Part shown: piece after piece, positions 8,304 to 61,158 of the stretch
How positions within the stretch are numbered: position 1 is the stretch's first letter
Layout of the letters: every line of letters begins with the position of its first letter
From: a virus
Virus record (IMG/VR): IMGVR_UViG_3300028840_001735
DNA length: 64,000 nt
Reading direction: 5' to 3' (one strand)
Made by a program: the position numbers and the translations under genes
The notes under the pieces: generated by a model
Seen by the model: the letters and a program-made list of their open reading frames with translations, nothing else
Told to the model about the DNA's origin: nothing
Databases searched by the model: none

Positions 8304-8657
8304 TTAACTAACTTTTCCAAACTTAGGTAGAACATTAACAACCATTTCGAGATTACCTGAACCACTAGTATGATCCCAAGCAATTCTAGCATATCTATAT
8401 TTACAAACTACCTCTTCATAACCAGAACCAGGTGTACCACCTGGATTGATAGCGAATGTAAACGGTATCTCTTGCCAACCTACACCACCACCGGCAAGAG
8501 AATCGTCGTTTGTGACTTCTAAATCAAAATCGCCAGATAAATCGTTTGTCCAAGTATACGTGATACTAAATTCGTCAGAATATCTTAAATCAATAACTAA
8601 ACTGTTTGTATCGGCGCCTATAACACCACCGTCAAAAATAGTTCCTGCTGTTTTCAT
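8304..8657 (-). CDS. hypothetical protein (small beta-rich tail-associated)
   Basis: 117 codons with an ATG start, packed between the gpI-like and propeller genes. Confidence 0.5.
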   Translation of the reverse strand: MKTAGTIFDGGVIGADTNSLVIDLRYSDEFSITYTWTNDLSGDFDLEVTNDDSLAGGGVGWQEIPFTFAINPGGTPGSGYEEVVCKYRYARIAWDHTSGSGNLEMVVNVLPKFGKVS

Positions 8658-8669
8658 TTTATATTTCTC

Positions 8670-32534: not shown

Positions 32535-33758
32535 CTATATAAACCTACCAAAAAACAAAGCTTCTTCTATTGCCGCTTCTTCATATTCTGGTTCAAAAAG
32601 TAAACCAAAAAAATGATCGGCGTTACTCGAAGATTGCCCTAAATAAACATCACCATCGTCTGTACTCCATGATGTTCCTGAATGTGTACCGTTACCAGTA
32701 GTGAATAGTGAAGTTATAATATCACCTTCCCCGGGGTCGATTACTATCTTTAAAATTTGCCCTCTGGACCAGGTGTGATTCCCTGAAGTGACAAGAGCAC
32801 TTGCCCCATCGACTACTATCCGGCCAGTGTCGGCACTCGTCCCGGGTTCCAAATATATTTTGATATCCTGGGTGGCATCATCGAAGTGGAGTAACACCTG
32901 CTCCTCGGTGCTTGTATCGTATAACTGAGCGCTTCCGAATTCTGGGATTATATATAACGTAATCTTTCCTCTTAGATTCGAAGTTACATCCGTCGAATCC
33001 CAATACCCGTTAGCTGCCGCCCTAGTGACATCTGATGTTCCAGAATTCGGGATAATCGACGAAGGCCACTCACCGAATTCAAACTGTGCCTGCCATCCCC
33101 AAAAAGCACTGGACCCGTCCCCTGTGAAGTAATAATCCGTCCCATCTAATGCTAAAAATTCAGACCGCAACCATTCATAAGCAGCACAGTCGTTTATATC
33201 GCGAGTATACCAGCAGAAGCACCATCCGTCGCTCGCATCGTCCGCACCAGAATCTATTATACCACTTGTACTCCCAACCGACTTCGCACTAAGATCATAG
33301 TTTACATCTGTTTGATCACCGGTATGCTGGTGTCTCATCCGCAAATCATAGCCGTTGTCTTTGCCGAATATCGATGCTGCCCACGTCCCTTCTGGCGTGT
33401 TTTCATCAAACGTAGTGATCCATTTGCGGATGAAGTGGTCGTTATAGTTTGTGCTCGGAACTACTTCATCAGCAGTGTTTGTCCCGAGTGGGTCATCAGT
33501 ACCTGTGTCATTAGTATTTACGGTAACCTGATCAGTGTCATATTGATCAAATTGTTGCGAATAGAATTGAACGTTAGTCCGCGATCCTTCTATTAATATA
33601 CCTGTACGGGTAGCCCCATCTACAGTCATGTCAACCGTCGCTTTGACATTTGAACCGAACGACCCCAGCACCTCTTCGATGGACGTGCCGATCGGTCCAA
33701 TATAACGCGTACTAGAACAACTAAATGTTAAATCATCAAAATCTGCTGCAATTGCCAT
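32535..33758 (-). CDS. lectin-like module protein, paralogue of the C-terminal part of 8670..12077
   Basis: Residues ~60-240 align with the repeat module of the gpI-like protein (TN...F....W....V..N.T..P.GT.TAD ... GDGSS..W.A..E.G..PS.I). The C-terminal ~130 aa also resemble that protein's C-terminus. Confidence 0.5.
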   Translation of the reverse strand: MAIAADFDDLTFSCSSTRYIGPIGTSIEEVLGSFGSNVKATVDMTVDGATRTGILIEGSRTNVQFYSQQFDQYDTDQVTVNTNDTGTDDPLGTNTADEVVPSTNYNDHFIRKWITTFDENTPEGTWAASIFGKDNGYDLRMRHQHTGDQTDVNYDLSAKSVGSTSGIIDSGADDASDGWCFCWYTRDINDCAAYEWLRSEFLALDGTDYYFTGDGSSAFWGWQAQFEFGEWPSSIIPNSGTSDVTRAAANGYWDSTDVTSNLRGKITLYIIPEFGSAQLYDTSTEEQVLLHFDDATQDIKIYLEPGTSADTGRIVVDGASALVTSGNHTWSRGQILKIVIDPGEGDIITSLFTTGNGTHSGTSWSTDDGDVYLGQSSSNADHFFGLLFEPEYEEAAIEEALFFGRFI

Positions 33759-41499: not shown

Positions 41500-42696
41500 T
41501 TATACACCAGTACCAATATTAGTACCCTTTACGAGTGCAGTTACTTCTTCAACCTGACAAGAAACCTTAGCGTGCATACAGTATTCATTACCACGCTTAT
41601 AGATGTTTCTATCTTTTTCTAGTGTTAGATCTCTACCGATACCTATAATAAAGTTATCCATATGAGTAAGAATAACTTGCGGATTTGCTTGATAAGTGAT
41701 CTTACATACATCACCATCGCCGATCGAACCACCGGCATTACGCGCTATAGTTCCAGCAGTATAATCCATATCATAATCAGTACCTTCAGTATATGCTGCT
41801 GTAGGTGTAGTAGATAAAGCACTCGGCAGGACGTTCTCGCCGGCAGATACAATTGGATTATATCTTAGACTTACAGCGGTAGTTCCACTAAGTGTTACAT
41901 GCTCAACAACTGTTGGGTTTAGAGCCATCAATGGAACCTCAACAATAGGAATTCCATAAGGTGTTTGAGTCTCACCGGCGGCGGCACTATCACCACGCGG
42001 CGTCATGCGAGTTGCGAATTTTTCAATATAAATCTGCGCCAGATCAGGCGACATAAAGAAACGCAAATCCTTTTTGTTTCTGCGAAACTTAGTCGGCATA
42101 GCCCTAATCATTGCACCGAATACACTTAGACCAATATTTGTACCGGCATGATCTACAACGTTTCCACTATCAGCCAAACGCAACCAACCGTTAAACAGCG
42201 CCAAAAAAGCATCCTTAACATACTGAGTAGTAGAACCACCATCAAGGATATCACCTTCAATAGAAGCTTGTCCAGTTGTATCGCCGTTTATATAAAGTGT
42301 CTCAAGATCATTTGCCAACTGCTTTGCAAACATTTTCATGATATGATCTTCAACACTTTCACCTTCTATATTCAACTCTTTAAAACCATCTGAAATCTCA
42401 AACGGTACAATGATTTCTTTTGGTAGAAGGCTGATCTTTGAAGTAGTTACACCACGCCGATTAGACGGTGCAACCATTTCAGTCGCCGGTTGTGCGACAC
42501 GAGTGCCAATACCGATCTTATCAATGTCAAGTTGCTCATTCCTAAACTTAACAACTCTGGCGTTATCTTTCAGGACGGTTTCTTGAACCAAATAATCTAT
42601 AAACTTATCCTGTTGTGCGGGGTTAAGCTTGCCGTAGGTAGCTAGAGCATCCGCCGCAGTAATCGCCGCTTTCTGGGTTAGCTCTTCATTAGTCAT
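41500..42696 (-). CDS. major capsid protein (HK97-fold type)
   Basis: 398 aa, directly after the scaffold gene. The N-terminal pattern LNPAQQDKFIDYLVQETVLKDNARVVKFRNEQLDIDKIGIG is typical of this capsid family. SD AAAGGAGAA precedes the start, and a terminator follows the gene. Confidence 0.75.
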   Translation of the reverse strand: MTNEELTQKAAITAADALATYGKLNPAQQDKFIDYLVQETVLKDNARVVKFRNEQLDIDKIGIGTRVAQPATEMVAPSNRRGVTTSKISLLPKEIIVPFEISDGFKELNIEGESVEDHIMKMFAKQLANDLETLYINGDTTGQASIEGDILDGGSTTQYVKDAFLALFNGWLRLADSGNVVDHAGTNIGLSVFGAMIRAMPTKFRRNKKDLRFFMSPDLAQIYIEKFATRMTPRGDSAAAGETQTPYGIPIVEVPLMALNPTVVEHVTLSGTTAVSLRYNPIVSAGENVLPSALSTTPTAAYTEGTDYDMDYTAGTIARNAGGSIGDGDVCKITYQANPQVILTHMDNFIIGIGRDLTLEKDRNIYKRGNEYCMHAKVSCQVEEVTALVKGTNIGTGV

Positions 42697-42750: not shown

Positions 42751-43638
42751 TTACAGCAAGCCAGTCCAAATATTACCATCTGTATTCTTTTGTACCAGTT
42801 TATCTTCTGAAGACTTAGGCGCCGGACGTGTTTCCTCGATCTTAGAAACGCGTCCGCTAATATCTTCAAGGCTCTTTTTGATCGGTGCAAAAACTTCTTC
42901 GATCGACTTAGTAACAGAATCAGTATTTTCACCTTTAGATACCCACTTAACATCAGCAGGTAACGCTGTTTTAGTTAGATCAGAAATAATACCTTTTACA
43001 GAATCGGGATCTACACTTACCAACATACCTAACAGTTGTTCGGTAGTCTTTTTAAGTGTAGCTGTTCTCTCACCTGTAAACCGTTTATTCTTTTCAAGAT
43101 CTTCAACATTAAGAAGTTCGCCGTTTTCTCCCAACTGAAAAACGATAGACTTTTTAACTTTATTTTTCTCTTCATCCTCATCTTTTTCTTTATCATCGGA
43201 TTTTTTCTTGTCCTCTGATTCTTCCTTCTCTTTTTCTTTATCCTTATCCTCTGCTTTTTTCTTTTCTTTGTCGTCTTCTTCCTTTTCTTTATCCTCTGCT
43301 TTTTCAACTGGATAATCGCCAGGTTTTAGTTGACTAAGAAAAGTAACTATAGAATCAATATCCTCATTAGGAACACTCTCACTATCTGAACTTTTGTTCA
43401 AGTATTCCTTGATGTTAGTTATTGACTTAACTAGATCCACCGGCAAACCGGCTTTTTCTAGCGTTTCGTTTGTTAGTCCATTATTAGGATCAAACGCACC
43501 CATGGTTTTAACCTCCTCATTTCTTTTCCAGAGTAAAAATTCACGCAAGATTGCCGGTTTATCAACTATGGAAACCTCACGAGTATCTAAACCGAGAATT
43601 TCTCGGGCATCTTTTTTGCTTTTATTTTTAGTAATCAT
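42751..43638 (-). CDS. scaffolding protein
   Basis: 295 aa, with a highly charged helical centre (KEKEEDDKEKKKAEDKDKEKEKEESEDKKKSDDKEKDEDEEK). It lies between the protease-domain gene and the capsid gene, with an ATGA overlap upstream. Confidence 0.65.
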   Translation of the reverse strand: MITKNKSKKDAREILGLDTREVSIVDKPAILREFLLWKRNEEVKTMGAFDPNNGLTNETLEKAGLPVDLVKSITNIKEYLNKSSDSESVPNEDIDSIVTFLSQLKPGDYPVEKAEDKEKEEDDKEKKKAEDKDKEKEKEESEDKKKSDDKEKDEDEEKNKVKKSIVFQLGENGELLNVEDLEKNKRFTGERTATLKKTTEQLLGMLVSVDPDSVKGIISDLTKTALPADVKWVSKGENTDSVTKSIEEVFAPIKKSLEDISGRVSKIEETRPAPKSSEDKLVQKNTDGNIWTGLL

Positions 43639-46600
43639 TTTCCTTCTACTGTAGCAATGCCACCAATACTAAACCCTGTCAACTCTTTATTCTTTATCTT
43701 ATTCCATATATTATCATCACTCACATGAACTGTCATCACCCAACTTCCTTTTTTGACATGTTTACCGTTTATATCATATGAAACAGGTGATATGTAAGAT
43801 TCAACTAATTCAACACCAATATCACCAAACATATTATGCATAATCCCCAATTTTGTACTCCTATTATAGTTAGTTAAAAAGTTATGGGCTGTCTTTCTAA
43901 TAGTTTCCGGCTTTTCCCAATCTTTATGTGCGTCAACCTCGTTAGGTTCTAAAACAATTCCAGTTACTATCCTTAATTCTCTACCTTCCGCCTTTACTGT
44001 TTCTACCTCGCAGAACTCGAATTCTTTAGTTGGCACATCAATCAGATTACCTTGATCAGAAACCAATAACCAACCGTCACCATCTTCTATAAGTCTATGT
44101 AATCCTTTGAGTTTTTTCCCTTTAAACATGATCTCTGTAGTACTAATAGAATCACCTGATAGCACCGCTAAACCTTGATCGATCACATCAATCTCTGATG
44201 TAAGTGCCTTGGATACATTTATATAGTGTGCCGGCTTGATATGTTTTGGTAAACTCATAGAGTTTTTATGCTTATCAAACTCCTTAATTACCCTAATCGG
44301 ATTATCACCAATAGGACTTTTTTCGGACTCCAAAACCAATAATGATGGTTCACCTATATCAAGTCTAATCATCCAACGTTCATTAGCCAAATTAGAACCT
44401 ATTTGAACAGGTTCACTCCAATTTTGTCTCTGTAAAACAAACTTTGCATTCGATAAAGAAAATTCACTTTTTTCAGAAAAACCTTTATTCACATCAATCT
44501 CAACCCTACTAGATTGGATTCTTTTTACCAATTCGTTGCGTACTGTTTCAATTTCACCTTCAGATTTTTCCCAATATTTCAACTCATCTGGTATCTGTTT
44601 TCTAATCGCTACAGGTAAAAACGAATAACCTTGCGGCGGTATCCAATGATCCTGAACGGATTGATCACTCAAAATATATGGCATTTGTTCTTTAGGACGA
44701 ACAGATATCCATAATTGCTTATCTATAATCCCAGAATTCTTTTTTATAAATACATCTGTACATTCATTACACAATTCTATTATATCACCGTCCCATTCTA
44801 TGAAACTCATTTCACCTTCATTTTTGCATACTAGACATTCTTCTATCCTATCTGTTTTTTCTATTTTTATGGCTCTAAAAACTAAACGCCCTTTGAAATT
44901 ACCGTTCTTTAAAAAATATTCCCGGTAATCACTTTTTTGGACGCCATACTCTACAACACCTTGATCCACAATATCAAACACACCAGGATATTGTGGATTA
45001 CCACCTATAGGCGATGCCTTACCTAATACCGGATCTTTAGTTTTACCTTCGATATCTAGCCAGATATTCGGACAAACACCTTCATATTTGCTTACAATTT
45101 CCACTGGCAAAGAATCATCATCTACCATCCAATTGTTGTTTTTCCAATCCACTTTACTTATATTATCCAAACACCCTGATAATTTTTTTGCTGTTTCTAA
45201 TGTAGTTACTGGTTTATCAATATCATATTCCTTTTGTATTTCCATAGTCCAACTAATCAAACTTTTATTGCATTCTGTTTCTACTCTAAAATCAGAATGC
45301 AAACTTTTACCGCACCAATGGTTTTGAACAACATATCTGTATGTACCAGACTCATCAGGGACAATAAGATTACTTTCATCACATGACTTTTTTACCGGGT
45401 TATAATTCATAACTTCAAGTAAATCACCAGGTTGTATCCCAGTAGAACCGCCGCCGGTAATAAACGTTGAAAGCTTTCTAACTATCCAACCGCGTTTTTT
45501 AAGTTCATTAAACTTCTTTTTAGCTTTCATATCGTAATGAAGAATAAACTTACCTTTTAAACTCTTTAGTTTTTCTATAAACTTATCTTCATCAAATTCT
45601 TTTTCGCCAACACCTTGATCACGTTCTGGGTATGGCGGATCTAAATAAAAGAATGAATCTGGCGCATCATACTTATCAAATAATTTTTCATAACTATCAT
45701 TATGAATCTTTACACCCTTTAATCTTTCTTTAGTAAGCGCTAATCTATCTGGACCTTGGTATCTTTTATTTTCAATCGAAGGATCTATACCTCTTATGTT
45801 TGTATCTACACGGTAAAAAGATGCAAACCTTTTATATACAAAACGGTAAAACCGTTCTATATCGTTTTTAGGTTTTAAATAATGTACCTTCTCTAATTGA
45901 TCTCTTGTGCAAACCCAATTGAGTGATTGTATCTTTTTAATCTGATCTTCAGTTATATCTTGTATAAACTTTAAACAAAAAGGTATCTCCGGGTTTATAT
46001 CGTTCAATACTTCTACTTCACTCCGTTCTTTACGATAAAAAACCGCCGCACCACCGGCAAACGGTTCTATATACGTTTTATGTTCTGGCATCATACTTAC
46101 TACACGTCCGGCGACTCTGGTTTTTCCGGCAGTAGAACCCCACATAGATAATCTTCGTTTACTAACACTTTCTTTATTTTCCGTTTCACGTTCTAATATC
46201 TTACGTGCTTTATTCTGTAAATCTGATATTTGTTTATCAGATAAACCAAATTTGCTTTGTGGTATACGTGCTATAGCATTCCTCAAGTGTGGCAAATCAA
46301 CTTTACCTGTAGCATCTTTATAAGGAAAATGCCGTAAACTTCTCGGTGCAGTTTTCCCTTCACCGTCCTTTTTACCACCTGATTCAACATATAAAAAAGC
46401 ACTATCCGGTAAATCGTTTATATAAGCCCTAGACCATACTGCTTTCTTTACAAAACATTGAAAACCAAAATCTTTATCAACCCAATTTTTATTTGAAAAC
46501 TCCTTTTCAAAATCAGAAGATAAGTCATCTAATCCGTTATCGGGCGGCGCCGGATGTTCCACACCATCTGAAGATAACTTATCCACAATCAAAGAATGTA

Positions 46601-47159
46601 GATTAGTTATCTTAATTGTGCTCAACTCGTCGGTGTTATCACCGTACATTTTATGTAGTTTCCAATGTACGGCTTCAAGTTGTTCATTATCTAATCCGTC
46701 GATATCTATATCTGTAGTAATTTCGATATCTGATTTTTTTATTTCTTCTGTTATTTCTTCTACCTTCTTTTCAATTTCATTTATAAAACTAACATCGATT
46801 GGATTATCAAACTTATCCAACACTTCAACTTGACGATAATACAACACATCTGAATTCCAAGTTGGTTGTACCTCTGCCCACTGTTTTCTAGTGTCTTCAG
46901 AGATCAAGTGTCTATTTTCTAAACTCTTAAAAGCATCGCCGTTCACAGCAACAGTATCACCTAACTTTATTATACCTAAAGCTTTATTTTGACTAACCAA
47001 ATAACACGTTTCATTTTTTATTTCAATAGGACGTGTTTTAACAAGCAAATCAGATTTGCCGTCTATCAATGCCGTTGCTATAAAATGTGGTGAAACAGTG
47101 ATACTTTCTATAGTAGTAACATCTGCTTCTTTTTGTGGTAATGTGGATACTCTTTTCAT
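43635..47159 (-). CDS. 1174-aa multidomain head protein: Dam-like N6-adenine MTase + LigD-phosphoesterase-like domain(s) + C-terminal XkdF-like prohead protease domain
   Basis: MTase motifs YIEPFAGGAAVFY (res ~363-375) and FFYLDPPYPERD (res ~503-514). LigD_N-like YVVQNHWCGKSLHSDFRVE...YEG...YPGVFDIVDQGVVEYG...NGNFKGRLVFRAIK (res ~605-765). XkdF-like end GIVLEPNEVDAHKD...TAHNFL...VELVESYISPVSYDINGKHVKKGSWVMTVHVSDDNIWNKIKNKELTGFSIGG (res ~1055-1174). Confidence 0.7.
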   Translation of the reverse strand: MKRVSTLPQKEADVTTIESITVSPHFIATALIDGKSDLLVKTRPIEIKNETCYLVSQNKALGIIKLGDTVAVNGDAFKSLENRHLISEDTRKQWAEVQPTWNSDVLYYRQVEVLDKFDNPIDVSFINEIEKKVEEITEEIKKSDIEITTDIDIDGLDNEQLEAVHWKLHKMYGDNTDELSTIKITNLHSLIVDKLSSDGVEHPAPPDNGLDDLSSDFEKEFSNKNWVDKDFGFQCFVKKAVWSRAYINDLPDSAFLYVESGGKKDGEGKTAPRSLRHFPYKDATGKVDLPHLRNAIARIPQSKFGLSDKQISDLQNKARKILERETENKESVSKRRLSMWGSTAGKTRVAGRVVSMMPEHKTYIEPFAGGAAVFYRKERSEVEVLNDINPEIPFCLKFIQDITEDQIKKIQSLNWVCTRDQLEKVHYLKPKNDIERFYRFVYKRFASFYRVDTNIRGIDPSIENKRYQGPDRLALTKERLKGVKIHNDSYEKLFDKYDAPDSFFYLDPPYPERDQGVGEKEFDEDKFIEKLKSLKGKFILHYDMKAKKKFNELKKRGWIVRKLSTFITGGGSTGIQPGDLLEVMNYNPVKKSCDESNLIVPDESGTYRYVVQNHWCGKSLHSDFRVETECNKSLISWTMEIQKEYDIDKPVTTLETAKKLSGCLDNISKVDWKNNNWMVDDDSLPVEIVSKYEGVCPNIWLDIEGKTKDPVLGKASPIGGNPQYPGVFDIVDQGVVEYGVQKSDYREYFLKNGNFKGRLVFRAIKIEKTDRIEECLVCKNEGEMSFIEWDGDIIELCNECTDVFIKKNSGIIDKQLWISVRPKEQMPYILSDQSVQDHWIPPQGYSFLPVAIRKQIPDELKYWEKSEGEIETVRNELVKRIQSSRVEIDVNKGFSEKSEFSLSNAKFVLQRQNWSEPVQIGSNLANERWMIRLDIGEPSLLVLESEKSPIGDNPIRVIKEFDKHKNSMSLPKHIKPAHYINVSKALTSEIDVIDQGLAVLSGDSISTTEIMFKGKKLKGLHRLIEDGDGWLLVSDQGNLIDVPTKEFEFCEVETVKAEGRELRIVTGIVLEPNEVDAHKDWEKPETIRKTAHNFLTNYNRSTKLGIMHNMFGDIGVELVESYISPVSYDINGKHVKKGSWVMTVHVSDDNIWNKIKNKELTGFSIGGIATVEGK

Positions 47160-47419
47160 AATGCATTCCTATAATCTAAATCTTTAGGTTTTTTATTATG
47201 GCGTTTAAACCAGTTTGATCTAATTCTATCTATCTGTTCGTCGATAGGATTATCTTCGTTAGGTACACCTTGCAACATTTCAAGTTGATAAATTTGTCCG
47301 CTAGTCAAATCGCCTGTTTCGTCTAAAATATCTTCAGTGAGTTTCAAAATTTCTTCATCCTCTAAAGGTGGCGCCGTATCGTTTAGTTTTTCTAAAGCAC
47401 TTTGTTTTTTATCTGGCAT
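47156..47419 (-). CDS. hypothetical acidic protein
   Basis: 87 codons, with an ATGA overlap to the downstream gene. Confidence 0.45.
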   Translation of the reverse strand: MPDKKQSALEKLNDTAPPLEDEEILKLTEDILDETGDLTSGQIYQLEMLQGVPNEDNPIDEQIDRIRSNWFKRHNKKPKDLDYRNAL

Positions 47420-47433: not shown

Positions 47434-49407
47434 TTATGGTAACCTCGTAATATTAGTGGCTATATCCCTAACTAATAACGCTTTTTCGTCTTTTGTTATA
47501 TTCGGAATATTATCTACAAAATCATAAATTACATCTTCTACCTCTGTAGATATTTTAACACCAGGACGGTTTATAGCGAATGAAGCTGTTTCAACGGCGT
47601 CAATTATTTGTTGTTCAGTCCAGTTTTTACCTACTACACGTTCAACAGATTCTAAGATATCTATTATTTGTCTATCATATGCACCAGGTGCTATCCATCT
47701 ATCATAAAATTTTGTTCTCAGTTTAAACGGTTGTATAAAAGTATTCCTATGTAACACAAATTCTTGTGATTTGCCATAAGCATTGTTCACACCTAATAGT
47801 TTACGCAAAATAGACTTAGATACTATTTCGGTTGTACCTTCTATAAGACTACGCGCAGAATCCTTAAAGGCTTTCATTGATGAACGATTAGAACCATGAA
47901 CTACTTCGTGTATTAAAGTTTCTATCCCTAAATCTTGTTTATGTAAAAACGTATTTTTCCATGTACCATCTAATATCTGTTTCAATTCGTCCGATATTGT
48001 TTCCGCACTAGATCTTTTAAGCTCTATTCTGCCGGTCCAATAGTGTGTGCCTAACGATTTTTTGTTTGTTCTAATGTATAATTTTTTGTTCTGCCCTTTT
48101 GTAAGTTCTTCAGGTAATAACGACCCTCTTTCCCTTGCTGGCGTTTGAGTCATACCAAAATGTTTTTCAAAAGTTTTATTGATAGTTTTTCTAATCTTAC
48201 CTAACTCTTTTGTGCCATATAAACTATCCCATTGTTCTGATATAACCTTGAAATCCCCTACTAAATCATCATGTGGATTTATAGTTGCTGTAGTTCTAGG
48301 CTTCGGTTTGGGTTTAGGTAAAACAGGTTTTGTTCTTATAGGTTTTGGTGCTCGTATTCCCATCTCTTTACTTACAACATCTATATTACATCTACACCTG
48401 AAATGATACGGCGGCATTATAACATTAGCTTTTACAAGTCCTCTAGTACCCTTTGGTGATACTCTACCTATTCTACCACCGGTTAAGTTATGAGCCATTT
48501 TAGTTGTTATAAACGGTTGCGCTTGTTTAACTTGTTCCGGCGTAGTAGCAGAAAGAAGATTTTCTAGTTGAATACCGGCATCAGATACAGTGAATTCTTT
48601 GCCGTCTAACATCTGGCATTTTTCACACGTCCTATGATCGTTTGGATTCACTACTTGAAACGTTGTAAACCCAACATTACTAAACGCATTAAGTTGCGCC
48701 GTTACTCTCGCGGACGTTGCGGCATTAGCTGTCAAACCTTCAAAATATCTTTCACTAGTTCCTCTAAAGCCTTTAGGTATTTTTACATGTTTCAGATTAG
48801 ATTCTACAACTTGTTTCATGGTTTTGCCGGCAGCTACTCTGCCGCGCCCATGCTCAATCAAATGTTCTTTAGTTACTTTAGCTATAGTATCAGAAACATT
48901 GTTTTTATAATGTTCTCCGATCCAAAAAACTTGATGCCCTTCTAATGCAGACATTGCCCTGTAATCCGACATATCAAAATCAGGACGTACTTTGAATTTT
49001 TCAGCTTTAGCAACGAAAGTACCTGTACTAAAATCCATCGGCGCTTTAGTTATTTTATACGCTTTTTTTAATGCCGCGACATGAGATAAAGTATATATAT
49101 TGATCATCTCATTATGAAATCGAACTGATACAACATCATACCACTTGTTCATAACTTCATCGATAGATTTTACTATACGACTTATATCCTTATCCGTTAC
49201 AATCTCACTTGACTTATTTAACTCTTTTAATGCAACACTACTGGCTTCAGAAGCTAATCTATCCCATTGTTTACTTATATATTCACGCAACATAGTTTCA
49301 ACTTTAGCGGTTTGTGTTAACTCATCTATCGCTAAAGCTTTAGATAACATAAAATCAACAATATTTATACTGTCATAAAGTTGATCTATTTGTGTAATCT
49401 GTTGCAT
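47434..49407 (-). CDS. MuF/SPP1 gp7-like head morphogenesis protein with C-terminal HExxH domain
   Basis: MuF hallmarks NDHRTCEKCQMLDGKEF ... PPYHFRCRCNI (res ~256-341). These are followed by a Pro/Lys linker (PKPIRTKPVLPKPKPKPR) and a ~280-aa extension containing LIHEVVHGSN (HEVVH at 47896-47910). Confidence 0.75.
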   Translation of the reverse strand: MQQITQIDQLYDSINIVDFMLSKALAIDELTQTAKVETMLREYISKQWDRLASEASSVALKELNKSSEIVTDKDISRIVKSIDEVMNKWYDVVSVRFHNEMINIYTLSHVAALKKAYKITKAPMDFSTGTFVAKAEKFKVRPDFDMSDYRAMSALEGHQVFWIGEHYKNNVSDTIAKVTKEHLIEHGRGRVAAGKTMKQVVESNLKHVKIPKGFRGTSERYFEGLTANAATSARVTAQLNAFSNVGFTTFQVVNPNDHRTCEKCQMLDGKEFTVSDAGIQLENLLSATTPEQVKQAQPFITTKMAHNLTGGRIGRVSPKGTRGLVKANVIMPPYHFRCRCNIDVVSKEMGIRAPKPIRTKPVLPKPKPKPRTTATINPHDDLVGDFKVISEQWDSLYGTKELGKIRKTINKTFEKHFGMTQTPARERGSLLPEELTKGQNKKLYIRTNKKSLGTHYWTGRIELKRSSAETISDELKQILDGTWKNTFLHKQDLGIETLIHEVVHGSNRSSMKAFKDSARSLIEGTTEIVSKSILRKLLGVNNAYGKSQEFVLHRNTFIQPFKLRTKFYDRWIAPGAYDRQIIDILESVERVVGKNWTEQQIIDAVETASFAINRPGVKISTEVEDVIYDFVDNIPNITKDEKALLVRDIATNITRLP

Positions 49408-51129
49408 TTATTCATCTTCATCTTGGATTAGTTTTTCAGACCAAGCTTCTTCTAAATGTTTTCTTAAACTAAATAAACTATCAATCACATCTGTTTGATC
49501 TAAACTCTTTAACATTTTAGTCGGCGCAACCTGTTGTGATGGTTCTGTCACATCCGCTTGGTTCTTAACGGCTTCTGCCATGGACAAACTAAACGGCATA
49601 TCTGGATCGAATGTATCTGTCTTCTGTAACGGCGGCAACTCAAGACCTAGTATATCATTTAGAACCATCCTTGCGATCCGTGGTGTCATTCCGCCGGTCT
49701 TTTCAGCACCACCTAAGATCTTAACCAGTTCTGAATTGTCCGTAGTATTTGGACTATTGCTTTTGAATTTATAATAAACAGCACCAAGAATAGGAAATAA
49801 TTCACGGTTTATCCAGTTATCAAATTCATTTCGTTCTGGCGCAAAAATTTGTTCATCAGCTAATCGCCGTGATGTTTCCGCCGTTGTTCTAGTATAGTCT
49901 GAACTCCTGCCAGTGAATATAGGTGGTAACCTCCAGGATACCCTTACTTTTTCGCGATTAGTTTCAGAATACTTTTGAAACATTGCATCAGAATGTTGAT
50001 CGTCTGTTAATGACTTTATATCTATTTTAACCTGTCCAGAGTCTTCACCTTCTTCACCCATGGGTTCGGCTTCTATAACTAACACTTTACTTCTGTTATC
50101 GTCACCCTGGATTTTCTCCATAAACTCTTGAATTCTAATAACTGTATCTTCTGTAAGCTGTCCATTGCTTACGGCAATTACTTGACTAGGAATCATATTA
50201 TTACAAAATGTTATATAATTTATCTCACTAGATTTACGATCCCCTTCTATATCGATTATAGAACCCATAAACTTAGGTAACCCATATGCTGATCTGCTAC
50301 AGTATATCTTCCAATGTTTTATTTCATTAGCCTTTAATTCTTCCGGCATTGGAGTTCCTTTACCATCCCAATTTTTTACTTTCTCTTCAGGAACTAATTC
50401 ACCGGTTTCAACGTTGTATGTTCTATAATCGCCGAACTCTTTAAACCATCTTTGTGAATATGAACTACTCGAATAACTTCTAGTAGGACTAAGTGATATC
50501 TGAACAAATCTTCTAAACCGCTTATAAATTGTCATGGTATCTATTGAAATACTACCATCTACATTTAATTTATGTATCGGCATATCAACTTTAATTGGAG
50601 TTACATCTGTAGGTGTTATCCTAACTTGATAACTTGGTACATGTGTAAAATACTGTATCTCGCCGTTTATACTCCTTACTACTTCCCAATATCCATTACC
50701 TGTAGCTTCTATATCCTGTCTTGTGTCGCGTCTAAGTTTTGTAAACGATCGATCATATCCGGCGTTCTGAAAGAAGTTTTCAAGTTTTACAAATTCTATT
50801 CTAGCTTCTTTTTTAGTCTTATCGTCGATCTCTGCATCACCGTTTAACCTTGATACAAAATAATGCCCAAAACCGTCTATATTGGTTTCCATGGCATCTA
50901 TACAAGGCCCCATTTCTGAATTCCGTTCTGATAATGTGGTTAGATAATACATATCAAACGGCGGTTCTAAAATCCTACCTTCTGCCTGTAAAGAAACTAA
51001 TGGATTATCCTCTGCAAGTTGTTTTGACTTTCCAGGTTCATCATTTTTCTTAGTAGGTAAATCGATTATCAAAGCACGTACTTTATTACCTTTAATTTTT
51101 GTATCAACTACTTCTGAGTTTATATGCAT
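49408..51129 (-). CDS. portal protein
   Basis: 573 aa, immediately downstream of the large terminase and upstream of the MuF-like gene. The call rests on size and position. Confidence 0.7.
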   Translation of the reverse strand: MHINSEVVDTKIKGNKVRALIIDLPTKKNDEPGKSKQLAEDNPLVSLQAEGRILEPPFDMYYLTTLSERNSEMGPCIDAMETNIDGFGHYFVSRLNGDAEIDDKTKKEARIEFVKLENFFQNAGYDRSFTKLRRDTRQDIEATGNGYWEVVRSINGEIQYFTHVPSYQVRITPTDVTPIKVDMPIHKLNVDGSISIDTMTIYKRFRRFVQISLSPTRSYSSSSYSQRWFKEFGDYRTYNVETGELVPEEKVKNWDGKGTPMPEELKANEIKHWKIYCSRSAYGLPKFMGSIIDIEGDRKSSEINYITFCNNMIPSQVIAVSNGQLTEDTVIRIQEFMEKIQGDDNRSKVLVIEAEPMGEEGEDSGQVKIDIKSLTDDQHSDAMFQKYSETNREKVRVSWRLPPIFTGRSSDYTRTTAETSRRLADEQIFAPERNEFDNWINRELFPILGAVYYKFKSNSPNTTDNSELVKILGGAEKTGGMTPRIARMVLNDILGLELPPLQKTDTFDPDMPFSLSMAEAVKNQADVTEPSQQVAPTKMLKSLDQTDVIDSLFSLRKHLEEAWSEKLIQDEDE

Positions 51130-51137: not shown

Positions 51138-53741
51138 CTACAACACACCAAAACTTCTACGAGTTCTATTGCGTGTTCGCTGTTTAGCTGAACCAACCGC
51201 ATGGTCTAAAGCATCAAAAAAGTCTCTATGCTTCTCTGATGGAAACAAGATTAGATTCTCTATAGGTTTAGAATGTACACCCTTTTTAAAATAGAAACGT
51301 TTATTCTCAAAAATCGCCGATAGCTTCCACGCCCTTGACATTTTATCTTTATGTACTTGTCTCTTATATATTCTAGCGTTAGGGCGTTTTTCTTTCAACG
51401 TTTGTCTTAAAGCATCCTGATATTGATTGGATTCTATACCTACTTTGATAGGGCTCCAACGATCATAAAATTCAAATATCTTTTCGGCGTGTTTAGTCGG
51501 ACGTAAAAAGTCTAAATAGTAATCCAATAAATAACAATAGTAATCATCCTTCTTTATTGATCCTTGAATACCTATAACAGCTATCGCAAACTTATCGTTT
51601 ATTTCACGTTCTGTAACGTTTAAATCTACACCCATATATATCTTAAGCGTATTAGTCGCCGGATAATCATCAATATCAATCTGTTGACAATCATCATATT
51701 GAAAAATTTCCCCCTTCATCGCTTCAGTATCACAATTACCTGATATTAAAATTTTCCCGTTACGCCTAGTTATCAAAGTGGCATTCTTGGTTTTAAAACA
51801 TACAACATTACCTGAATATGGAACTTCATAAATTTGTTTATTTGGATCAATCCCATTACCTATAGCTTTACGTAAACAAACCCTAAACGAATCGCTTCTT
51901 TGTACATAAACTTTACCATTTTTATAAATTTTTCTTGTTTTTATTTTAGAAATAGAAGAATCATATCCAATCATAAATCCAATTTCCATCACATCGTTTA
52001 CAAGCTGTTTAGATATTGAAGTGTACTGGTATGAATCACCTTTTTTATATTTTATTATATAACCACCACCATCTATCAATGTATCAAAAAGTATTTTTAA
52101 CTGACGTTTAGATAAGTTAAAAAAAATTCTTGGTATTCTTGCATCATACGAACATGTTTTTACATTTTCCCTTAACCATCCCCATAACCAAATATGTGAA
52201 AAAACTAACCTCACAGTATTTTTATTTTTATATTCTTTAAAATCAATTGACATTGATTTGAGAATATTTTTCATTGACTTCAGAACAATTCCTTCGTTTT
52301 GTGAAAAACTAATCTCCCCACGGGTTTTTTTACTAGTACTACCTTTAGTTACAAAAAAACCTAAAAACTTCAAAAACATATCCATCTCTACATCTATAGG
52401 TCTATGTTTTTCTAAAGAATATTCTTTCCATATACCTATACCATATCGATCTTTTCTCCAACCTTGTTTTATCTTGAAAATCTTTTTTTCTTTACCATTC
52501 CAATCTACACATGAAGGGAATAAAACACGCTTTGTTCTAATGCTAACTTTGGAAGGTAGATTATAAGCGTCAACAAAATCCCAATCGTCTTTAGATGGAT
52601 AATCTGCTGGTTTACAAACCATTTGATGATTTGGTGTAACCAAAGCATCAACCTTGTTACTTTTTATGTGAACCAGATTTCCTTTGTATGATTTGTTAAT
52701 TTTACGAATTGGCTTTTGATATTGTAGTTTATTGTTTTTGAGATTATACGTTGCAAGCTTGTTATCTTTGTCTATTTCGTAAAAGTATTTCCAACCTTTA
52801 TTTGTAAGGAATTCTGTATCTTCTGAATGACATTGGTATTGACTGTTAAAAATAATCAATCCTGATTTCTTGCGTATATCCTTAAAATATTTCGGTGTAA
52901 ACTTTTCAGGCCATGGTGAATTTTCGTTATCATCTAAAGCTCTAATTACAAGAGTTTTACCTTTAAGTTCGTTAGCTTCTAAGTGTCCATACAAATCATC
53001 AAAATGATATCTAGTCCCTTCTCTATGATGTTCGCCGCGATGAGGAACGTTTGGATCTGGTGGTTCTAATAATGGAAGATATGTTTTATAATACCAAGTC
53101 TTGACTTTATCCCTCATTCTAGACGTTCTGGAATTCTCTTCTGTTATCAAGTCATCTGTTATAAGTACATCAAAGTGTTTAGATGTAATAGTTGAATCTT
53201 CACCAGTACATGTGATCGTCGATTCTGTTGCTGCTGTAGTTCTACCAAGTATACTTATTTCCGTGTTATCCCATTTCTCTACATCGCGTGGATCAAAAAA
53301 TGGTCCGAATATATCAACTAACTTTTTGTTATGCTCAAAATGTGCTTTTATACCACGTAAAAAACCTTCAGCATTCCCTTTGCTTTTACTACCTAACAAT
53401 ATCCTTAAGTTTCTATTCTTACATAAAAGAAATATAGATCGTGTAATCGTGCAAGACGTTGTTTTACCAGAACCACGGAACGCAAGGATCAAATTATCAG
53501 GATGTAGAAATTGCCATTGCAACATTTTTAAATGAAATGGTTTAACGTCGTAACCAAGAACTTCTTTAGCTAATATATCTATGCGATTATTCTCTAGAAC
53601 CTGTCGCCGAATCCATTCGTTCGTCGCTGCCTGTTGCTGTGCTAAAACACCTTCAAGTTGTGAACGTTCTAATCTATCAAGCTTCTTTGCTACACCACGA
53701 ATTATAGGTGTTACTTTTTTCTTTTTTACACTTTTCGGCAT
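51138..53741 (-). CDS. terL: terminase large subunit, intein-containing
   Basis: Walker A AFRGSGKTTS and Walker B FDVLITDD are in the N-terminal extein. The C-terminal nuclease-like extein contains VDLNVTE...IAVIG...IESNQYQ. A 366-aa insertion separates ...IIFNSQYQ from CDTEAMKGEIF. Confidence 0.85.
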   Translation of the reverse strand: MPKSVKKKKVTPIIRGVAKKLDRLERSQLEGVLAQQQAATNEWIRRQVLENNRIDILAKEVLGYDVKPFHLKMLQWQFLHPDNLILAFRGSGKTTSCTITRSIFLLCKNRNLRILLGSKSKGNAEGFLRGIKAHFEHNKKLVDIFGPFFDPRDVEKWDNTEISILGRTTAATESTITCTGEDSTITSKHFDVLITDDLITEENSRTSRMRDKVKTWYYKTYLPLLEPPDPNVPHRGEHHREGTRYHFDDLYGHLEANELKGKTLVIRALDDNENSPWPEKFTPKYFKDIRKKSGLIIFNSQYQCHSEDTEFLTNKGWKYFYEIDKDNKLATYNLKNNKLQYQKPIRKINKSYKGNLVHIKSNKVDALVTPNHQMVCKPADYPSKDDWDFVDAYNLPSKVSIRTKRVLFPSCVDWNGKEKKIFKIKQGWRKDRYGIGIWKEYSLEKHRPIDVEMDMFLKFLGFFVTKGSTSKKTRGEISFSQNEGIVLKSMKNILKSMSIDFKEYKNKNTVRLVFSHIWLWGWLRENVKTCSYDARIPRIFFNLSKRQLKILFDTLIDGGGYIIKYKKGDSYQYTSISKQLVNDVMEIGFMIGYDSSISKIKTRKIYKNGKVYVQRSDSFRVCLRKAIGNGIDPNKQIYEVPYSGNVVCFKTKNATLITRRNGKILISGNCDTEAMKGEIFQYDDCQQIDIDDYPATNTLKIYMGVDLNVTEREINDKFAIAVIGIQGSIKKDDYYCYLLDYYLDFLRPTKHAEKIFEFYDRWSPIKVGIESNQYQDALRQTLKEKRPNARIYKRQVHKDKMSRAWKLSAIFENKRFYFKKGVHSKPIENLILFPSEKHRDFFDALDHAVGSAKQRTRNRTRRSFGVL
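51735..52832 (-). mobile_element. intein with LAGLIDADG homing-endonuclease domain (TerL residues 304-669)
   Basis: Begins with Cys (CHSEDTEFLT; codon 52832-52830) and has block B ALVTPNHQM. Two LAGLIDADG-like motifs are present (FLKFLGFFVTKGS and ILFDTLIDGGGY). It ends ...LISGN (Asn codon 51737-51735), followed by the +1 Cys. Confidence 0.8.
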
Positions 53742-58471: not shown

Positions 58472-59026
58472 TCAAATCTTGATCGGCATAATAACTAGCG
58501 TGAGATTGCTTATCGCTCTACAAAGTATCTTGATAGGAGACAAAGCACTATCAGCATAAACGTGGAAAGAAGGGACTTCTCTACCATTGAACATACTCCT
58601 TTTCAATTGAAACGCCTTTATTGCATCCTGTATGAAGAAGGGATTTAGACCACGTTCTTTCACTGGCGTATCGTTATATTCTGGCATGACTTCGCGCCAT
58701 GACGGAATAGATACATCAAGTGCGTCGAATGAAAATCCAAGTACTTTAACTATGGATTCATTCACTTGGATTTCAATTTTGTCATCTGGAGATATGTCAA
58801 TTGCTTTTAAGATCTTCTTTGCATCATCAAGACTAATAGCAAATTCAATATCTTGACCACTGCATGGTGCACTAAGTACTGATAAGCACTTACCATTTGT
58901 GCCAACTATGTTTAATCTCTCATCCTTGCATTCAAAAAAAACACATTCCAAGTATCTATTGCCACCTTTGGCGAATAGTACGGCTGCATTAATTCCGTTG
59001 TAAAGTTCGCCTTTCTCTATTTCCAT
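58472..59026 (-). CDS. hypothetical protein, faint sliding-clamp (DnaN)-like motif
   Basis: 184 aa. LNIVGTNGKCLSVL resembles the L.LVATDGHRLA segment of beta clamps. This is very tentative. Confidence 0.2.
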   Translation of the reverse strand: MEIEKGELYNGINAAVLFAKGGNRYLECVFFECKDERLNIVGTNGKCLSVLSAPCSGQDIEFAISLDDAKKILKAIDISPDDKIEIQVNESIVKVLGFSFDALDVSIPSWREVMPEYNDTPVKERGLNPFFIQDAIKAFQLKRSMFNGREVPSFHVYADSALSPIKILCRAISNLTLVIMPIKI

Positions 59027-59109: not shown

Positions 59110-61158
59110 TCATACATATAGTTGATCGGCAAATTTACTGATCTGTGTTTTTTTGTATGTACTTAGAATCTTAAGAGCCCATGCGCATTGTTTATCAGAA
59201 TACTCGATACCGTCAAGCGCCCTATCGACTAATGATTGCACAAACTCTGATCTGGCATCCTTGCCATTGAATCCTATATTATCTTTTTTAACAGCACCGT
59301 CGCAGTGTCCAGACAGATAAAGCATAGCTTTAGCAGCTACTTGCTTTATCTCTGAATTCACAGTGTATTCAAAGGTGCCTTTTTTGTTTCTGATCTGTAC
59401 TTTTGTATCCTCAACCGGCTTTTTCTCAACCGGCTTTTTCTCAACCGGCTTTTTCTCAACCGGCTTTTTCTCAACCGGCTTTTCGATTTTGGGACGATTC
59501 CGATCAAGCGCTTGATCGGCTATGTTCATTTTATACACCATGGTTTTAATCACATGAGAATCAATAGTGCCATCGAGTGTAAGATAGACAACATTTACAA
59601 ATGTAGCTGTTTGCCCGATTCTATGTGCTCTATCCTCAGCTTGCACGCACCACGATGGATTCCAATCAGCTTCAGCAAAAACAACTGTATTAGCTGCTGT
59701 AAGCGTAATACCCATTCCGGCAGCATGTGTTGATAGAATAGCTAATTCGACTTCAGAATCATTCTGAAACCGATCAACTAATTCTTGACGCTTATTGATC
59801 GGCGTAGATCCATCAATCCTTATAGAATTAGGGAATTGTTTTTCGATCTCATCTAATAAAACTTTATGATGAGCGAAAACTATTGCTTTACCTTGTATAT
59901 TTTCGCTCAAATACTCACATACACCCTTTGCTTTTGCTTGTGCTATTTCAGCCCTTAAAGCTGATATTTCTTCAAAACTACCAGCACTAGCTATTAATCG
60001 ATCTATGTCATCAGTCCAGGTTTCCGGCATACTCTGTAAACCAGAATCACTGCACTCTAGATCAACTACCGATCTGAGCTTTGGAGGTAGTTCGGTTTCA
60101 ACGTCTACCTTAAGCCGTCGTACCATACACGACGATCGTAATTTGGCTTGTAATTCGTCAAGGTGGGTAGCACCATCAAACTGCCAACCCCATCTTGTCT
60201 TTTCCGGTGCACAATACCGGAATAAAAACTTCGACTCAGTTTGCCAAGTGCCTTCAGGACCAATCGCGCCGATCGCTTTTAGAAGGCTGATACTTTCTCT
60301 CACCTTATTCTGTATCGGCGTACCTGTTAATAACACGCAACGTGCCACTTTATGGATCAATCCCTCAGTCTTAAGACGGCCTTTCACCCATGTGCCAAAA
60401 AAGAAAGCTGTTCTTTTGGCTTTTGGGTTTTTCAACATATGCGATTCATCAAGAATCGCTAGATCAAAATTCATACCAGAAAGTGTTTCTCTGATATGCT
60501 TTGCGCGATCACTGCTACCGACCACTTTATCATAGTTGACTATGATCACCCTAGCGGTAGTATCAACTGCTTTGCCATTGATAACATGGACTGAGATCTC
60601 AGAATCCCACCATTTTTGGAACTCACGTTGCCAGTTAACTTTAAGCGTAGCCGGACAAACTACCAAAATTTTCTCGGCATCAAGGGATCGCGCAATCCCG
60701 ATACCTTGCATAGTCTTGCCCAATCCCATTTCATCGGCGATCAACACACCTTTTTTGCCGGATTGAAAATTAGACAGTGCGTACTGAATTCCGGCCCTTT
60801 GATACGGTCTGTACTCAAGACCAGTAGCACGGGGTATGTCAAGATCGGCGTCTGTAGCCTTTGACAGGTCTTGAGACCTTGCAAGATCCGTCAATAGACT
60901 TGCTACATCTGAACTCAACTCAACTTGATCAGAGCTTGCTAGATCTACTGCAAGCTCTAATTTGTTTTCACTGATCCAGCGGGTACGGCGTGGAATACCC
61001 GCGTCGTATAGCCTACGTTGCAGATCGGGCGGTGATTTTTCCCATACGAAAAACCAACCCCGTTCCTTTAACCATTGTGAATCAGAAAAACTAGCATTGG
61101 GCGCGTACAATACGCGCCCTAGTTTTTCTACTGTCACTGTCTCGATTCTTATTGTCAC
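59110..61158 (-). CDS. SNF2-family helicase/ATPase
   Basis: Motifs YQRAGIQYAL, LIADEMGLGKT (I), ILDESHMLKN (II), LTGTPIQN (III) and GMGITLTAANTVVFAEADWNPSWCVQAEDRAHRIGQ (V-VI). GTG start with AAGGAGA 6 nt upstream. Confidence 0.9.
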   Translation of the reverse strand: MTIRIETVTVEKLGRVLYAPNASFSDSQWLKERGWFFVWEKSPPDLQRRLYDAGIPRRTRWISENKLELAVDLASSDQVELSSDVASLLTDLARSQDLSKATDADLDIPRATGLEYRPYQRAGIQYALSNFQSGKKGVLIADEMGLGKTMQGIGIARSLDAEKILVVCPATLKVNWQREFQKWWDSEISVHVINGKAVDTTARVIIVNYDKVVGSSDRAKHIRETLSGMNFDLAILDESHMLKNPKAKRTAFFFGTWVKGRLKTEGLIHKVARCVLLTGTPIQNKVRESISLLKAIGAIGPEGTWQTESKFLFRYCAPEKTRWGWQFDGATHLDELQAKLRSSCMVRRLKVDVETELPPKLRSVVDLECSDSGLQSMPETWTDDIDRLIASAGSFEEISALRAEIAQAKAKGVCEYLSENIQGKAIVFAHHKVLLDEIEKQFPNSIRIDGSTPINKRQELVDRFQNDSEVELAILSTHAAGMGITLTAANTVVFAEADWNPSWCVQAEDRAHRIGQTATFVNVVYLTLDGTIDSHVIKTMVYKMNIADQALDRNRPKIEKPVEKKPVEKKPVEKKPVEKKPVEDTKVQIRNKKGTFEYTVNSEIKQVAAKAMLYLSGHCDGAVKKDNIGFNGKDARSEFVQSLVDRALDGIEYSDKQCAWALKILSTYKKTQISKFADQLYV
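59410..59484 (-). repeat. 15-bp tandem repeat x5 (ctcaaccggcttttt) encoding (KPVEK)5
   Basis: The repeat is read directly from the sequence and lies in the C-terminal third of the SNF2 ORF. Confidence 0.95.

Follow-up and report, generated by a model that had tools for sequence, protein, structure and literature searches.

Why would a phage join a DNA methyltransferase and a predicted DNA-end-healing enzyme to the protease of its own head, in one polypeptide? The question was raised by an open reading frame (ORF) of 1174 aa in IMG/VR virus record IMGVR_UViG_3300028840_001735, of which the 64,000-nucleotide stretch analysed here (the window) was taken. We propose, at a probability of roughly 0.55, that the product is a polyvalent head protein whose C-terminal XkdF end would take counter-defence and DNA-end-healing cargo into the procapsid, from where it would be delivered with the DNA. 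The identities of the domains, the catalytic motifs conserved in them, the position of the gene and the combinatorial make-up of its family carry this proposal. The protein is organized as follows, from the whole ORF through its parts in N- to C-terminal order.

43635..47159, minus strand: whole ORF of the proposed 1174-aa polyvalent head protein; ATG start, no internal stop
46794..47108, minus strand: ASCH-fold domain, residues ~18-122 (AlphaFold2 model and Foldseek)
46560..46787, minus strand: helical linker domain, residues ~125-200, with predicted helices at 125-141, 158-174 and 181-197; conserved in close homologs
46506..46556, minus strand: linear motif HPAPPDNGLDDLSSDFE, residues 202-218, conserved in the alignment; opens a predicted disordered segment
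46155..46451, minus strand: ~90-aa conserved head-module domain (the module), residues 237-335, defined by family conservation
45375..46148, minus strand: D12-class (Dam/DpnM-like) N6-adenine DNA methyltransferase (MTase), residues 338-595 (PF02086, phrog_56, 2dpm)
44850..45368, minus strand: PE1, a beta-barrel of the LigD 3'-phosphoesterase (PE) superfamily, residues 598-770 (profile A6 and Foldseek)
44760..44837, minus strand: Cys4 zinc ribbon, C775/C778/C797/C800, seen as CxxC...CxxC in the close-homolog consensus and modelled as two beta-hairpins
44475..44726, minus strand: alpha/beta connector, here called HEL, residues ~812-895; always after PE1
44040..44453, minus strand: PE2, a second, degenerate domain of the LigD-PE fold, residues ~903-1040 (profile A5)
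43650..44006, minus strand: XkdF-type (Peptidase_S78_2) putative prohead serine protease, residues 1052-1170 (PF14550; phrog_3017)

The part of the protein that ties it to the head is its C-terminus. The XkdF domain, already recognized there in a first-pass annotation of the stretch, scored 111 bits with PF14550 (cut-off 24; E 4e-32) and matched the 'head maturation protease' family phrog_3017 at 9e-34. All of the family-conserved residues K1056, D1076, D1080, H1108, S1121 and S1164 (the last in GFSIGG) are present, and S1164, H1108 and D1076/D1080, conserved in at least 96% of 105 sequences, are candidate catalytic residues. XkdF ends the chain as a rule, with no more than 15 residues behind it in 91 of 104 homologs. 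In other phages the domain occurs alone, as a protein of ~150 aa, or joined to a scaffold region (phrog_3017). The literature searched held no experimental report on XkdF activity.

The neighbouring genes place the ORF in the head module. They are as follows.

51138..53741, minus strand: large terminase (TerL), 867 aa, with an intein-like LAGLIDADG insert (phrog_38 in two stretches; PF14528; Terminase_6C)
49408..51129, minus strand: portal protein (phrog_12 at 2e-25; PF04860)
47434..49407, minus strand: MuF-like minor head protein, 657 aa (PF04233 at residues 200-341; PHROG minor head families)
47156..47419, minus strand: 87-aa ORF, in ATGA overlap with the polyprotein ORF
42751..43638, minus strand: scaffold-like protein, 295 aa, with an acidic/lysine-rich centre (weak phrog_3017 match, C-terminal part)
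41500..42696, minus strand: HK97-like major capsid protein (phrog_1623 at 4e-76; PF05065 weak)

The order on the minus strand, TerL, portal, MuF, 87-aa ORF, 1174-aa ORF, scaffold-like ORF and capsid, puts the polyprotein in the prohead-protease slot, where the first-pass annotation had seen a single uninterrupted ORF between the MuF-like and scaffold/capsid genes. The other head-module ORFs scanned gave no match to a prohead protease; the lone 'head maturation protease' label falls on the MuF-like ORF, amid MuF-type minor-head-protein matches. Overlaps of 4 nt (ATGA) chain the 87-aa, 1174-aa and 295-aa ORFs, and the 87-aa ORF is apparently translationally coupled to the polyprotein ORF. The 87-aa ORF itself had no family match in the Pfam and PHROG scans, and its equivalent place is taken by a 67-aa ORF in the prophage L004 described below. 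A programmed -1 frameshift from XkdF into the scaffold ORF, at the A-AAA-TGA junction, was considered and rejected: no slippery sequence is conserved at the equivalent junctions of L004/L005 and PAK_P1, and the ATGA overlap was therefore taken as ordinary translational coupling. As genes for a tail sheath and a tape-measure protein lie further downstream in the window, the element is a myovirus-type phage.

Relatives of the polyprotein were collected from 5.8 billion proteins, and a profile of the PE1-HEL-PE2 block was searched against 1.84 billion cluster representatives (50% identity). The first search returned more than 250 relatives, which combine their parts in different ways. One architecture consists of one to three tandem D12 methylases, the module and XkdF, many of the proteins being ~800-1170 aa long; another is without methylase and consists of ASCH, the module, PE1-HEL-PE2 and XkdF (P0007, P0009-P0013). 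An ATP-dependent DNA ligase (PF01068) is present in P0014, P0017 and P0049, a 2H/LigT phosphoesterase is inserted after PE1 in P0015, and an InPase follows XkdF in P0091. P0058 and P0059 have DUF6582 or DUF5824 where the module would be, P0116 is a 2H plus module protein with a weak, sub-threshold Acb1-like match, and C5 MTase and lactamase_B domains occur as further cargo. The archaeal virus ANMV-1 encodes an 'ATP-dependent DNA ligase' in which the PE block stands on the C-terminal side of the ligase domain. The cargo repertoire of the homologs (D12 MTases, C5 MTase, ligase, 2H/LigT, InPase and lactamase_B) is typical of counter-defence or repair.

The second search yielded 1250 representatives at E <=1e-3, 568 of them at E <=1e-30, mostly 600-2200 aa in length. 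Among the best 149 of the 1250, the order PE1-HEL-PE2 was fixed while ASCH, MTase and module varied N-terminally; XkdF was detectable in 72 of these 149, and in 71 of those its distance from the C-terminus was at most 20 residues. Comparison of the sequences corrects the first-pass annotation in one respect: the conserved core is PE1-HEL-PE2-XkdF. The methylase is accessory, an insert that close relatives such as P0009 lack.

The gene place is as constant as the cargo is variable. The position of a protease between portal/MuF and scaffold/capsid was also found in L003, L004, L006, L010 and L012. The prophage L004, on a 358-kb contig, has the order TerL, portal, MuF, 67-aa ORF, a 1052-aa protein with three MTases, the module and XkdF, a 286-aa ORF and capsid; L006, a 79-kb phage contig, has a 1770-aa ligase-bearing version in the same slot, and L012, a close relative of the window lacking the methylase, uses the slot likewise. 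In P0084 (836 aa) the MTase, the module and XkdF run on into a tail of 317 aa; the next gene is that of the capsid protein, and a separate scaffold gene is lacking. The start of this tail matched the N-terminus of the 295-aa ORF of the window (EVS[IL]VD..A....FL..KR, pairwise E 1e-4), so that one chain holds cargo, protease and a scaffold-like part. In PAK_P1-like phages of Pseudomonas the order is minimal: the portal gene is followed by a gene for XkdF alone (156 aa), then by a 305-aa ORF overlapping it by ATGA, a 136-aa ORF and the capsid gene. Because these phages have the bare XkdF arrangement, the cargo is regarded as an N-terminal add-on to a pre-existing small head protease.

The annotation of the bare XkdF genes merits a separate remark. 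In Pseudomonas phage PAK_P1 (L010; NC_015294.2, 2983-3453), the 156-aa product in the protease slot, ~135 aa of which align with XkdF, is entered as 'DNA methyltransferase', a label common to many PAK_P1-like phage records. It is probably a mis-annotation spread by annotation transfer from MTase-XkdF fusions. The cultured phages with such 'DNA methyltransferase' XkdF genes were examined as possible known fusions and discarded, the gene being of the size just given in PAK_P1 and encoding 212 aa in a Rhizobium phage; tblastn found no cultured phage with a comparable fusion.

Turning to the cargo, the D12 MTase proposed in the first-pass annotation was identified with both of its motifs in order. 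PF02086 matched residues 345-553 with 71.6 bits (cut-off 22; E 1e-19), phrog_56 matched at 5e-36, and DpnM (PDB 2dpm) at E 2.4e-5. Motif I, EPFAGGAAV, at residues 365-373 precedes motif IV, DPPY, at residues 507-510. These matches support the prediction of a Dam-like enzyme forming N6-methyladenine with its catalytic motifs kept. Neither Pfam nor PHROG scans detected a helicase domain in the polyprotein. GATC sites were not depleted in the window, with 312 observed and 335 expected (0.93). GGCC was strongly depleted, with 27 sites observed and 98 expected (ratio 0.28). The GGCC depletion may reflect avoidance of HaeIII-type host restriction, GATC being left unselected or protected.

The block that follows the MTase belongs to the conserved core. 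A model of residues 591-1050, built from a 12-row alignment (predicted local distance difference test score (pLDDT) 82.7, predicted template modelling score 0.75), was compared with the PDB by Foldseek, and the only two convincing matches were the archaeal LigD PEs 3p4h and 3p43. For PE1 they were obtained at E 1.8e-6 (TMt 0.81) and E 3.9e-5 (TMt 0.76), respectively. A 29-sequence profile of PE1 (A6) gave 3p43 at 9.9e-7, 3p4h at 2.8e-5 and the PE of PaeLigD (3n9b/2lj6) at 2e-3, the alignment spanning the two barrel halves. A first, narrow profile (A1) reached the PaeLigD PE only at E 1.4, and significance was attained only once divergent members from the search of representatives were included. 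A single-sequence Pfam scan of residues 590-1064 returned nothing at E up to 10, and 16 PE1 sequences scanned singly gave no LigD_N match.

The active-site residues of PE1 can be read against those of characterized enzymes. In CkoPE, H9, H15 and D17 are Mn2+ ligands and R19 binds phosphate, each being essential in both CkoPE and MbaPE; a second phosphate ligand, His51 of CkoPE and His78 of MbaPE, is likewise essential, and a Tyr (Y55 and Y82, respectively) lies nearby (Smith et al. 2011, PMC3082917). PE1 carries the motif NHWCGKSLHSDFR at residues 613-625 and retains Q612, H614, H621, D623 and R625. H614, H621, D623 and R625 are the equivalents of CkoPE H9, H15, D17 and R19, with the spacing between the two His longer by one residue. 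These four residues and W700 were invariant in 29 diverse sequences with an average column identity of 35%. The Tyr column is occupied by this invariant W700 in the profile alignment. The first-pass reading of a LigD-PE-like domain with H-x6-H-x-D-x-R thus held for the site and the fold, and needs qualification in one respect: since the phosphate-binding His is not conserved, PE1 is a divergent branch of the superfamily and not an orthodox LigD PE. We regard it as a predicted metal-dependent phosphoesterase of the LigD 3'-end-healing superfamily.

Behind PE1, the Cys4 ribbon of the first-pass annotation was found at the four Cys listed above, conserved in close homologs; it is absent from P0002 and distant homologs, in which PE1 directly precedes HEL. 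Invariant residues of HEL are W817, P827, G844, L848, P849, W863 and R874. A degenerate second copy of the PE fold, only tentatively suggested before, was substantiated by profile A5 (residues ~896-1048), which matched 3p4h at E 8.7e-7 and 3p43 at 4.6e-4. The equivalents of the metal ligands are lost in PE2, where His9 is replaced by Q912 (in FVLQRQ), His15 by R928 and Asp17 by M930, while the Arg19 equivalent R932 and, in this protein, the equivalent of the phosphate-binding His, H964, are kept. With three metal ligands lost, PE2 is predicted to be catalytically dead, and it probably only binds nucleic acid. Direct comparison of PE1 with PE2 by hhalign reached only 17% probability, over the C-terminal strands only, and the internal duplication accordingly rests on each copy's own match to PE structures. 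Checking domain by domain, as had been advised in the first-pass annotation, returned significant structural matches for the MTase (2dpm) as well as for the LigD-PE-like domains (3p43, 3p4h).

The N-terminal part was examined with an AlphaFold2 model of residues 1-340 (27-row alignment), which had a mean pLDDT of 78.6 and was mostly above 90 over residues 20-120. ASCH domains were its top PDB matches in Foldseek, led by TTHA0113 (2dp9, E 4e-6, TMt 0.70) and including the Zymomonas ASCH protein ZmASCH (5y6c, 9e-6), YqfB and the ASCH domain of TRIP4; many viral ASCH proteins were matched in BFVD. The model thus supports an ASCH (PUA-like) beta-barrel fold for the N-terminal domain, which the first-pass annotation had put forward with reserve. 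A single-sequence Pfam scan of residues 1-336 gave nothing at E up to 10, the ASCH sequence model being unmatched. Between the helical linker and the module, the linear motif at residues 202-218 (consensus HPxPPDNGLDxxSxDFE) extends into residues 206-247, which have pLDDT <50 and are predicted to be disordered; with its HP.PPDNGLD core, the motif is a candidate site for protease cleavage or docking.

The module reads KAVWSRAYINDLPDSAFLYVESGGKKDGEGKT.PRSLRHFPYKD..GKVDLPHLRNAIARIPQ... and contains, at residues 239-301, the conserved segment beginning with W that had been pointed out earlier (W..AYINDLPDSAF...HLRNAIARIPQ). No other part of the family is conserved so well: 22 columns are invariant in a set of 20 sequences, and identity is 55-84% across homologs whose other domains reach <=40%. 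Sequence and profile searches found no match to it in Pfam, PHROGs or the PDB, and Foldseek with the module part of the N-terminal model found only a protein of Thermoanaerobacterium phage THSA-485A. This protein, Tsac_2860 (661 aa), is the sole module match in a cultured phage; its gene immediately follows that of the portal. The N-terminal part of the protein gives matches to head-maturation-protease PHROGs, and behind that part lies the module, at ~residues 244-323. Profile searches yielded 831 module relatives, the best 120 of which are all standalone proteins of 85-190 aa without a Pfam domain; the standalone gene is present on hundreds of contigs. In L008, a 217-kb contig, such a gene (7001-7363) stands in the order TerL, portal, MuF, two small ORFs, module, 402-aa ORF, 150-aa ORF and capsid. 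A standalone module gene lies beside large head-like ORFs in L009 (7001-7327) and near replication genes in L007 (7001-7531); the contexts of the standalone form are thus not uniform. From its place in the head module of L008 and in the protease-slot protein of THSA-485A, we take the module to be a head-assembly-associated domain. Its identification as DUF6582 (PF20223), suggested by a similar motif, found no support: hhalign against the P0059 segment gave 0.7% probability, and none of the 120 standalone module proteins (0/120) had a precomputed Pfam hit to DUF6582. The standalone module gene of L009 adjoins a 1217-aa ORF with an intein-like Hint domain (7309-10962), which is followed at 11072-13775 by queuosine/archaeosine-type genes (PTPS, radical SAM, GTP cyclohydrolase I and QueC) and then by a 668-aa XkdF-containing protein.

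What, then, would such a protein do? The best explanation is that its N-terminal ~1040 residues are cargo and that XkdF is the part belonging in the assembling procapsid. Translation would be coupled with that of the scaffold protein, and the XkdF end would bring the polyprotein into the procapsid, where XkdF would cut scaffold/capsid substrates and probably the linkers of its own polyprotein as well. The freed enzymes would stay in the head and exit with the DNA at infection. Once the new cell supplied S-adenosylmethionine (SAM) and Mn2+, the methylase would modify the incoming genome against restriction and PE1 would heal damaged 3' ends, aided in nucleic-acid binding by PE2, the connector and ASCH; ligase-bearing relatives would also seal the healed ends. 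The first-pass annotation had likewise suggested that the fusion may target enzymes into the procapsid. The suggestion is supported comparatively because the same protease slot is used in unrelated phages and prophages, XkdF is terminal, the cargo is swapped, and P0084 is a single chain. Packaging, cleavage, ejection and all of the enzyme activities are what we infer from this pattern.

Several points weigh against the proposal. The presence of any family member in virions is predicted from genes, and the proteolytic activity of XkdF is likewise only predicted, the Pfam name itself containing 'putative'. Prohead proteases are usually degraded and expelled, so that the retention of fragments is an assumption, and 134 kDa of cargo per protease copy is bulky. 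XkdF is not seen in about half of the best representatives of the PE block, which may be truncated gene calls. In PE1, the column of the phosphate-binding His is occupied by C696, and mostly by Glu or Gln in the family, as read from the profile alignment only; moreover, two near-invariant positions of the family deviate in this protein, C616 (Arg in the family) and R746 (His in the family), and these deviations could weaken its PE1. Finally, as it is tightly tied to XkdF, PE1-HEL-PE2 may have a role in assembly rather than being free cargo.

Three other explanations were weighed against procapsid delivery. A fusion of adjacent genes by sequencing or assembly errors, of which the first-pass annotation had warned, has a practically negligible chance of being true. 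The unusual length is its only hint, and at the 37.6% GC content of the window a frame of 3525 nt free of stops is far longer than chance allows; the domain junctions are spanned collinearly by more than 100 independent homologs from metagenomes and genomes, and P0001 is an identical 889-aa fragment from a separate JGI data set. The collinear homologs and the identical independent fragment exclude an assembly or frameshift chimera. The fusion might instead serve late co-expression only, the enzymes acting in the cytoplasm on replicated DNA before or during packaging, and XkdF releasing itself and entering the procapsid alone. We hold this to be unlikely, although much fits it. The gene is in the late head operon with its apparent translational coupling, the undepleted GATC sites would suit a genome already methylated on leaving the cell, and the MTase is dispensable in close relatives (P0009), as expected of an accessory enzyme. 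In addition, SAM-dependent methylation is impossible on DNA condensed in a capsid, and the late Dam-type methylases of other phages act in the cytoplasmic manner. Such an account leaves unexplained why hundreds of lineages carry very different enzymes N-terminal to an XkdF that is almost always last, and why cargo, protease and scaffold-like tail form one chain in P0084; separate genes of an operon would be co-expressed without any fusion.

A mainly structural role has also to be considered, in which the module and PE1-HEL-PE2 would have been exapted into the internal head scaffold as largely non-catalytic parts that bind DNA or the capsid, serving genome organisation or end-anchoring within the head, with the methylase as the sole true enzyme passenger. 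The loss of all three metal ligands from PE2, the lack of the essential phosphate-binding His in PE1, and the rigid order of PE1-HEL-PE2-XkdF amid otherwise varying domains agree with this, as do the standalone module between MuF and the protease/scaffold genes in L008 and its occurrence inside the protease-slot protein of THSA-485A. We nevertheless judge it quite improbable. The His-His-Asp-Arg set of PE1, unchanged over 29 sequences only ~35% identical, is hard to explain without metal-dependent chemistry, and relatives place an ATP-dependent ligase or a 2H phosphoesterase beside the PE block, which points to real end-processing.

Procapsid delivery, the reading we prefer, has precedents of different kinds. 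In phage P1, the methyltransferase-helicase DarB of the Dar system is packaged into the capsid and guards incoming DNA against type I restriction. Here, too, a methyltransferase would be carried in the capsid and would act in cis on the injected genome; in contrast, DarB has a helicase domain, which is missing here, and needs other Dar proteins for its incorporation, whereas the device here would be the covalently attached prohead protease. Packaging is established for DarB and predicted here. The internal proteins and Alt of phage T4 enter the procapsid by means of a capsid-targeting sequence, which the prohead protease cuts off, and are later ejected together with the DNA. Loading of enzymes into the procapsid core, trimming by a protease and ejection are the steps proposed here as well, but in T4 the targeting signal is a short N-terminal peptide carried by separate proteins, whereas the present cargo is covalently joined to the protease. 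The XkdF proteins that stand alone (PAK_P1 gp3, 156 aa) or include a scaffold-like region (phrog_3017) share the Pfam domain, the place between portal/MuF and scaffold/capsid and the ATGA overlap, and differ in lacking the ~1040 residues of enzymatic cargo found N-terminally here.

The closest parallel in principle is offered by the polyvalent proteins, in which many effector domains are joined in one chain and the N6A methylase is a hub domain (Iyer, Burroughs, Anand, de Souza and Aravind 2017, PMC5512222). DarA and DarB were seed queries in that study, and T4 Alt was discussed; N6A methylase, 2H and InPase were among the polyvalent domains, and prohead peptidases (assemblin-like) were always C-terminal, in a class termed 'rather limited' (PMC5512222). 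In later work of the same group, XkdF was described as a serine peptidase unrelated to the SH/assemblin superfamily. The present family resembles the polyvalent proteins in having at least two unrelated enzyme domains, combinatorial architectures, a gene among virion/packaging genes and a C-terminal prohead peptidase, and in the proposed delivery of counter-defence enzymes with the DNA. It differs in its anchor, XkdF/Peptidase_S78_2, and in its ASCH, LigD-type PE and DNA ligase cargo, none of which is mentioned in PMC5512222, in the module, which is likewise missing from that paper, and also in scale: against a class called limited, the PE block alone comprises ~1250 clusters at 50% identity.

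Compared with the LigD PEs proper (CkoPE and MbaPE; 3P4H, 3P43; PMC3082917), both copies share the eight-stranded beta-barrel fold with significant profile matches; PE1 keeps the Mn2+-binding His, His and Asp and the phosphate-binding Arg, and relatives pair the block with an ATP-dependent ligase, as LigD does. Unlike those enzymes, PE1 has one extra residue between the two His, an insertion of ~60 residues, no phosphate-binding His, and Trp in place of Tyr; PE2 is degenerate, the copies stand in tandem with a conserved connector, and the setting is a virion module and not a cellular repair locus, with neither a Ku nor a polymerase partner seen here. A literature search on XkdF, on fused prohead protease-methyltransferases and on LigD phosphoesterases in phage capsids retrieved no description of this architecture. 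The principle is already known from the polyvalent proteins with a terminal prohead peptidase, and the strategy is the same with a different protease as the anchor. What is apparently undescribed is the XkdF anchor, the tandem of a predicted active and a predicted dead LigD-PE as cargo (with a ligase in relatives), and the conserved module.

Some further observations concern other genes of the window. In TerL, the apparent intein-like insert contains a homing-endonuclease domain (PF14528) at residues 554-622, and the nuclease domain (Terminase_6C) comes only at residues 703-849. The MuF-like protein has a C-terminal part of ~300 residues without a family match, which could be a second virion-delivered effector. 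A 682-aa SNF2-type helicase at 59110-61158 (minus strand) matches the middle of the 1881-position helicase profile phrog_62 at 2e-98, with a further, weak match to a giant PHROG labelled 'DNA methyltransferase'. Nearby, at 58472-59026, a RusA-like resolvase is encoded. The ORFs at 8670-12077 and 32535-33758, both on the minus strand, match the tail-protein family phrog_5939, the 1135-aa ORF doing so in three repeated stretches.

To a specialist the principle would come as no surprise; what deserves experimental follow-up is the size of the family, its virion-linked end-healing enzymes and the module. Whatever the mechanism, the divergent tandem branch of LigD-PEs with its ~1250 clusters, the ~90-aa module and the probable mis-annotation in PAK_P1 records stand. 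As a wider view, offered tentatively and on the doubtful side, XkdF-anchored polyproteins might be a large, overlooked class of virion-borne repair-and-modification kits: a LigD-like healing enzyme, with a ligase in relatives as portable end-joining, together with Dam methylases would leave the injected genome healed or circularised and methylated before host nucleases act, and the module would be a new, near-universal domain for loading into the head interior. Packaging of the cargo, if it occurs, would put a LigD-type end-healing enzyme into virions, joined in relatives by a ligase, and would extend the known use of end-joining by phages. Fusion N-terminal to a protease domain of ~120 residues would then be a simple, evolvable route for arbitrary enzymes into capsids, with bearing on counter-defence, that is, anti-restriction and possibly, through the 2H variants, action against the cyclic-oligonucleotide-based anti-phage signalling system (CBASS), and on the engineering of protein-delivering capsids.

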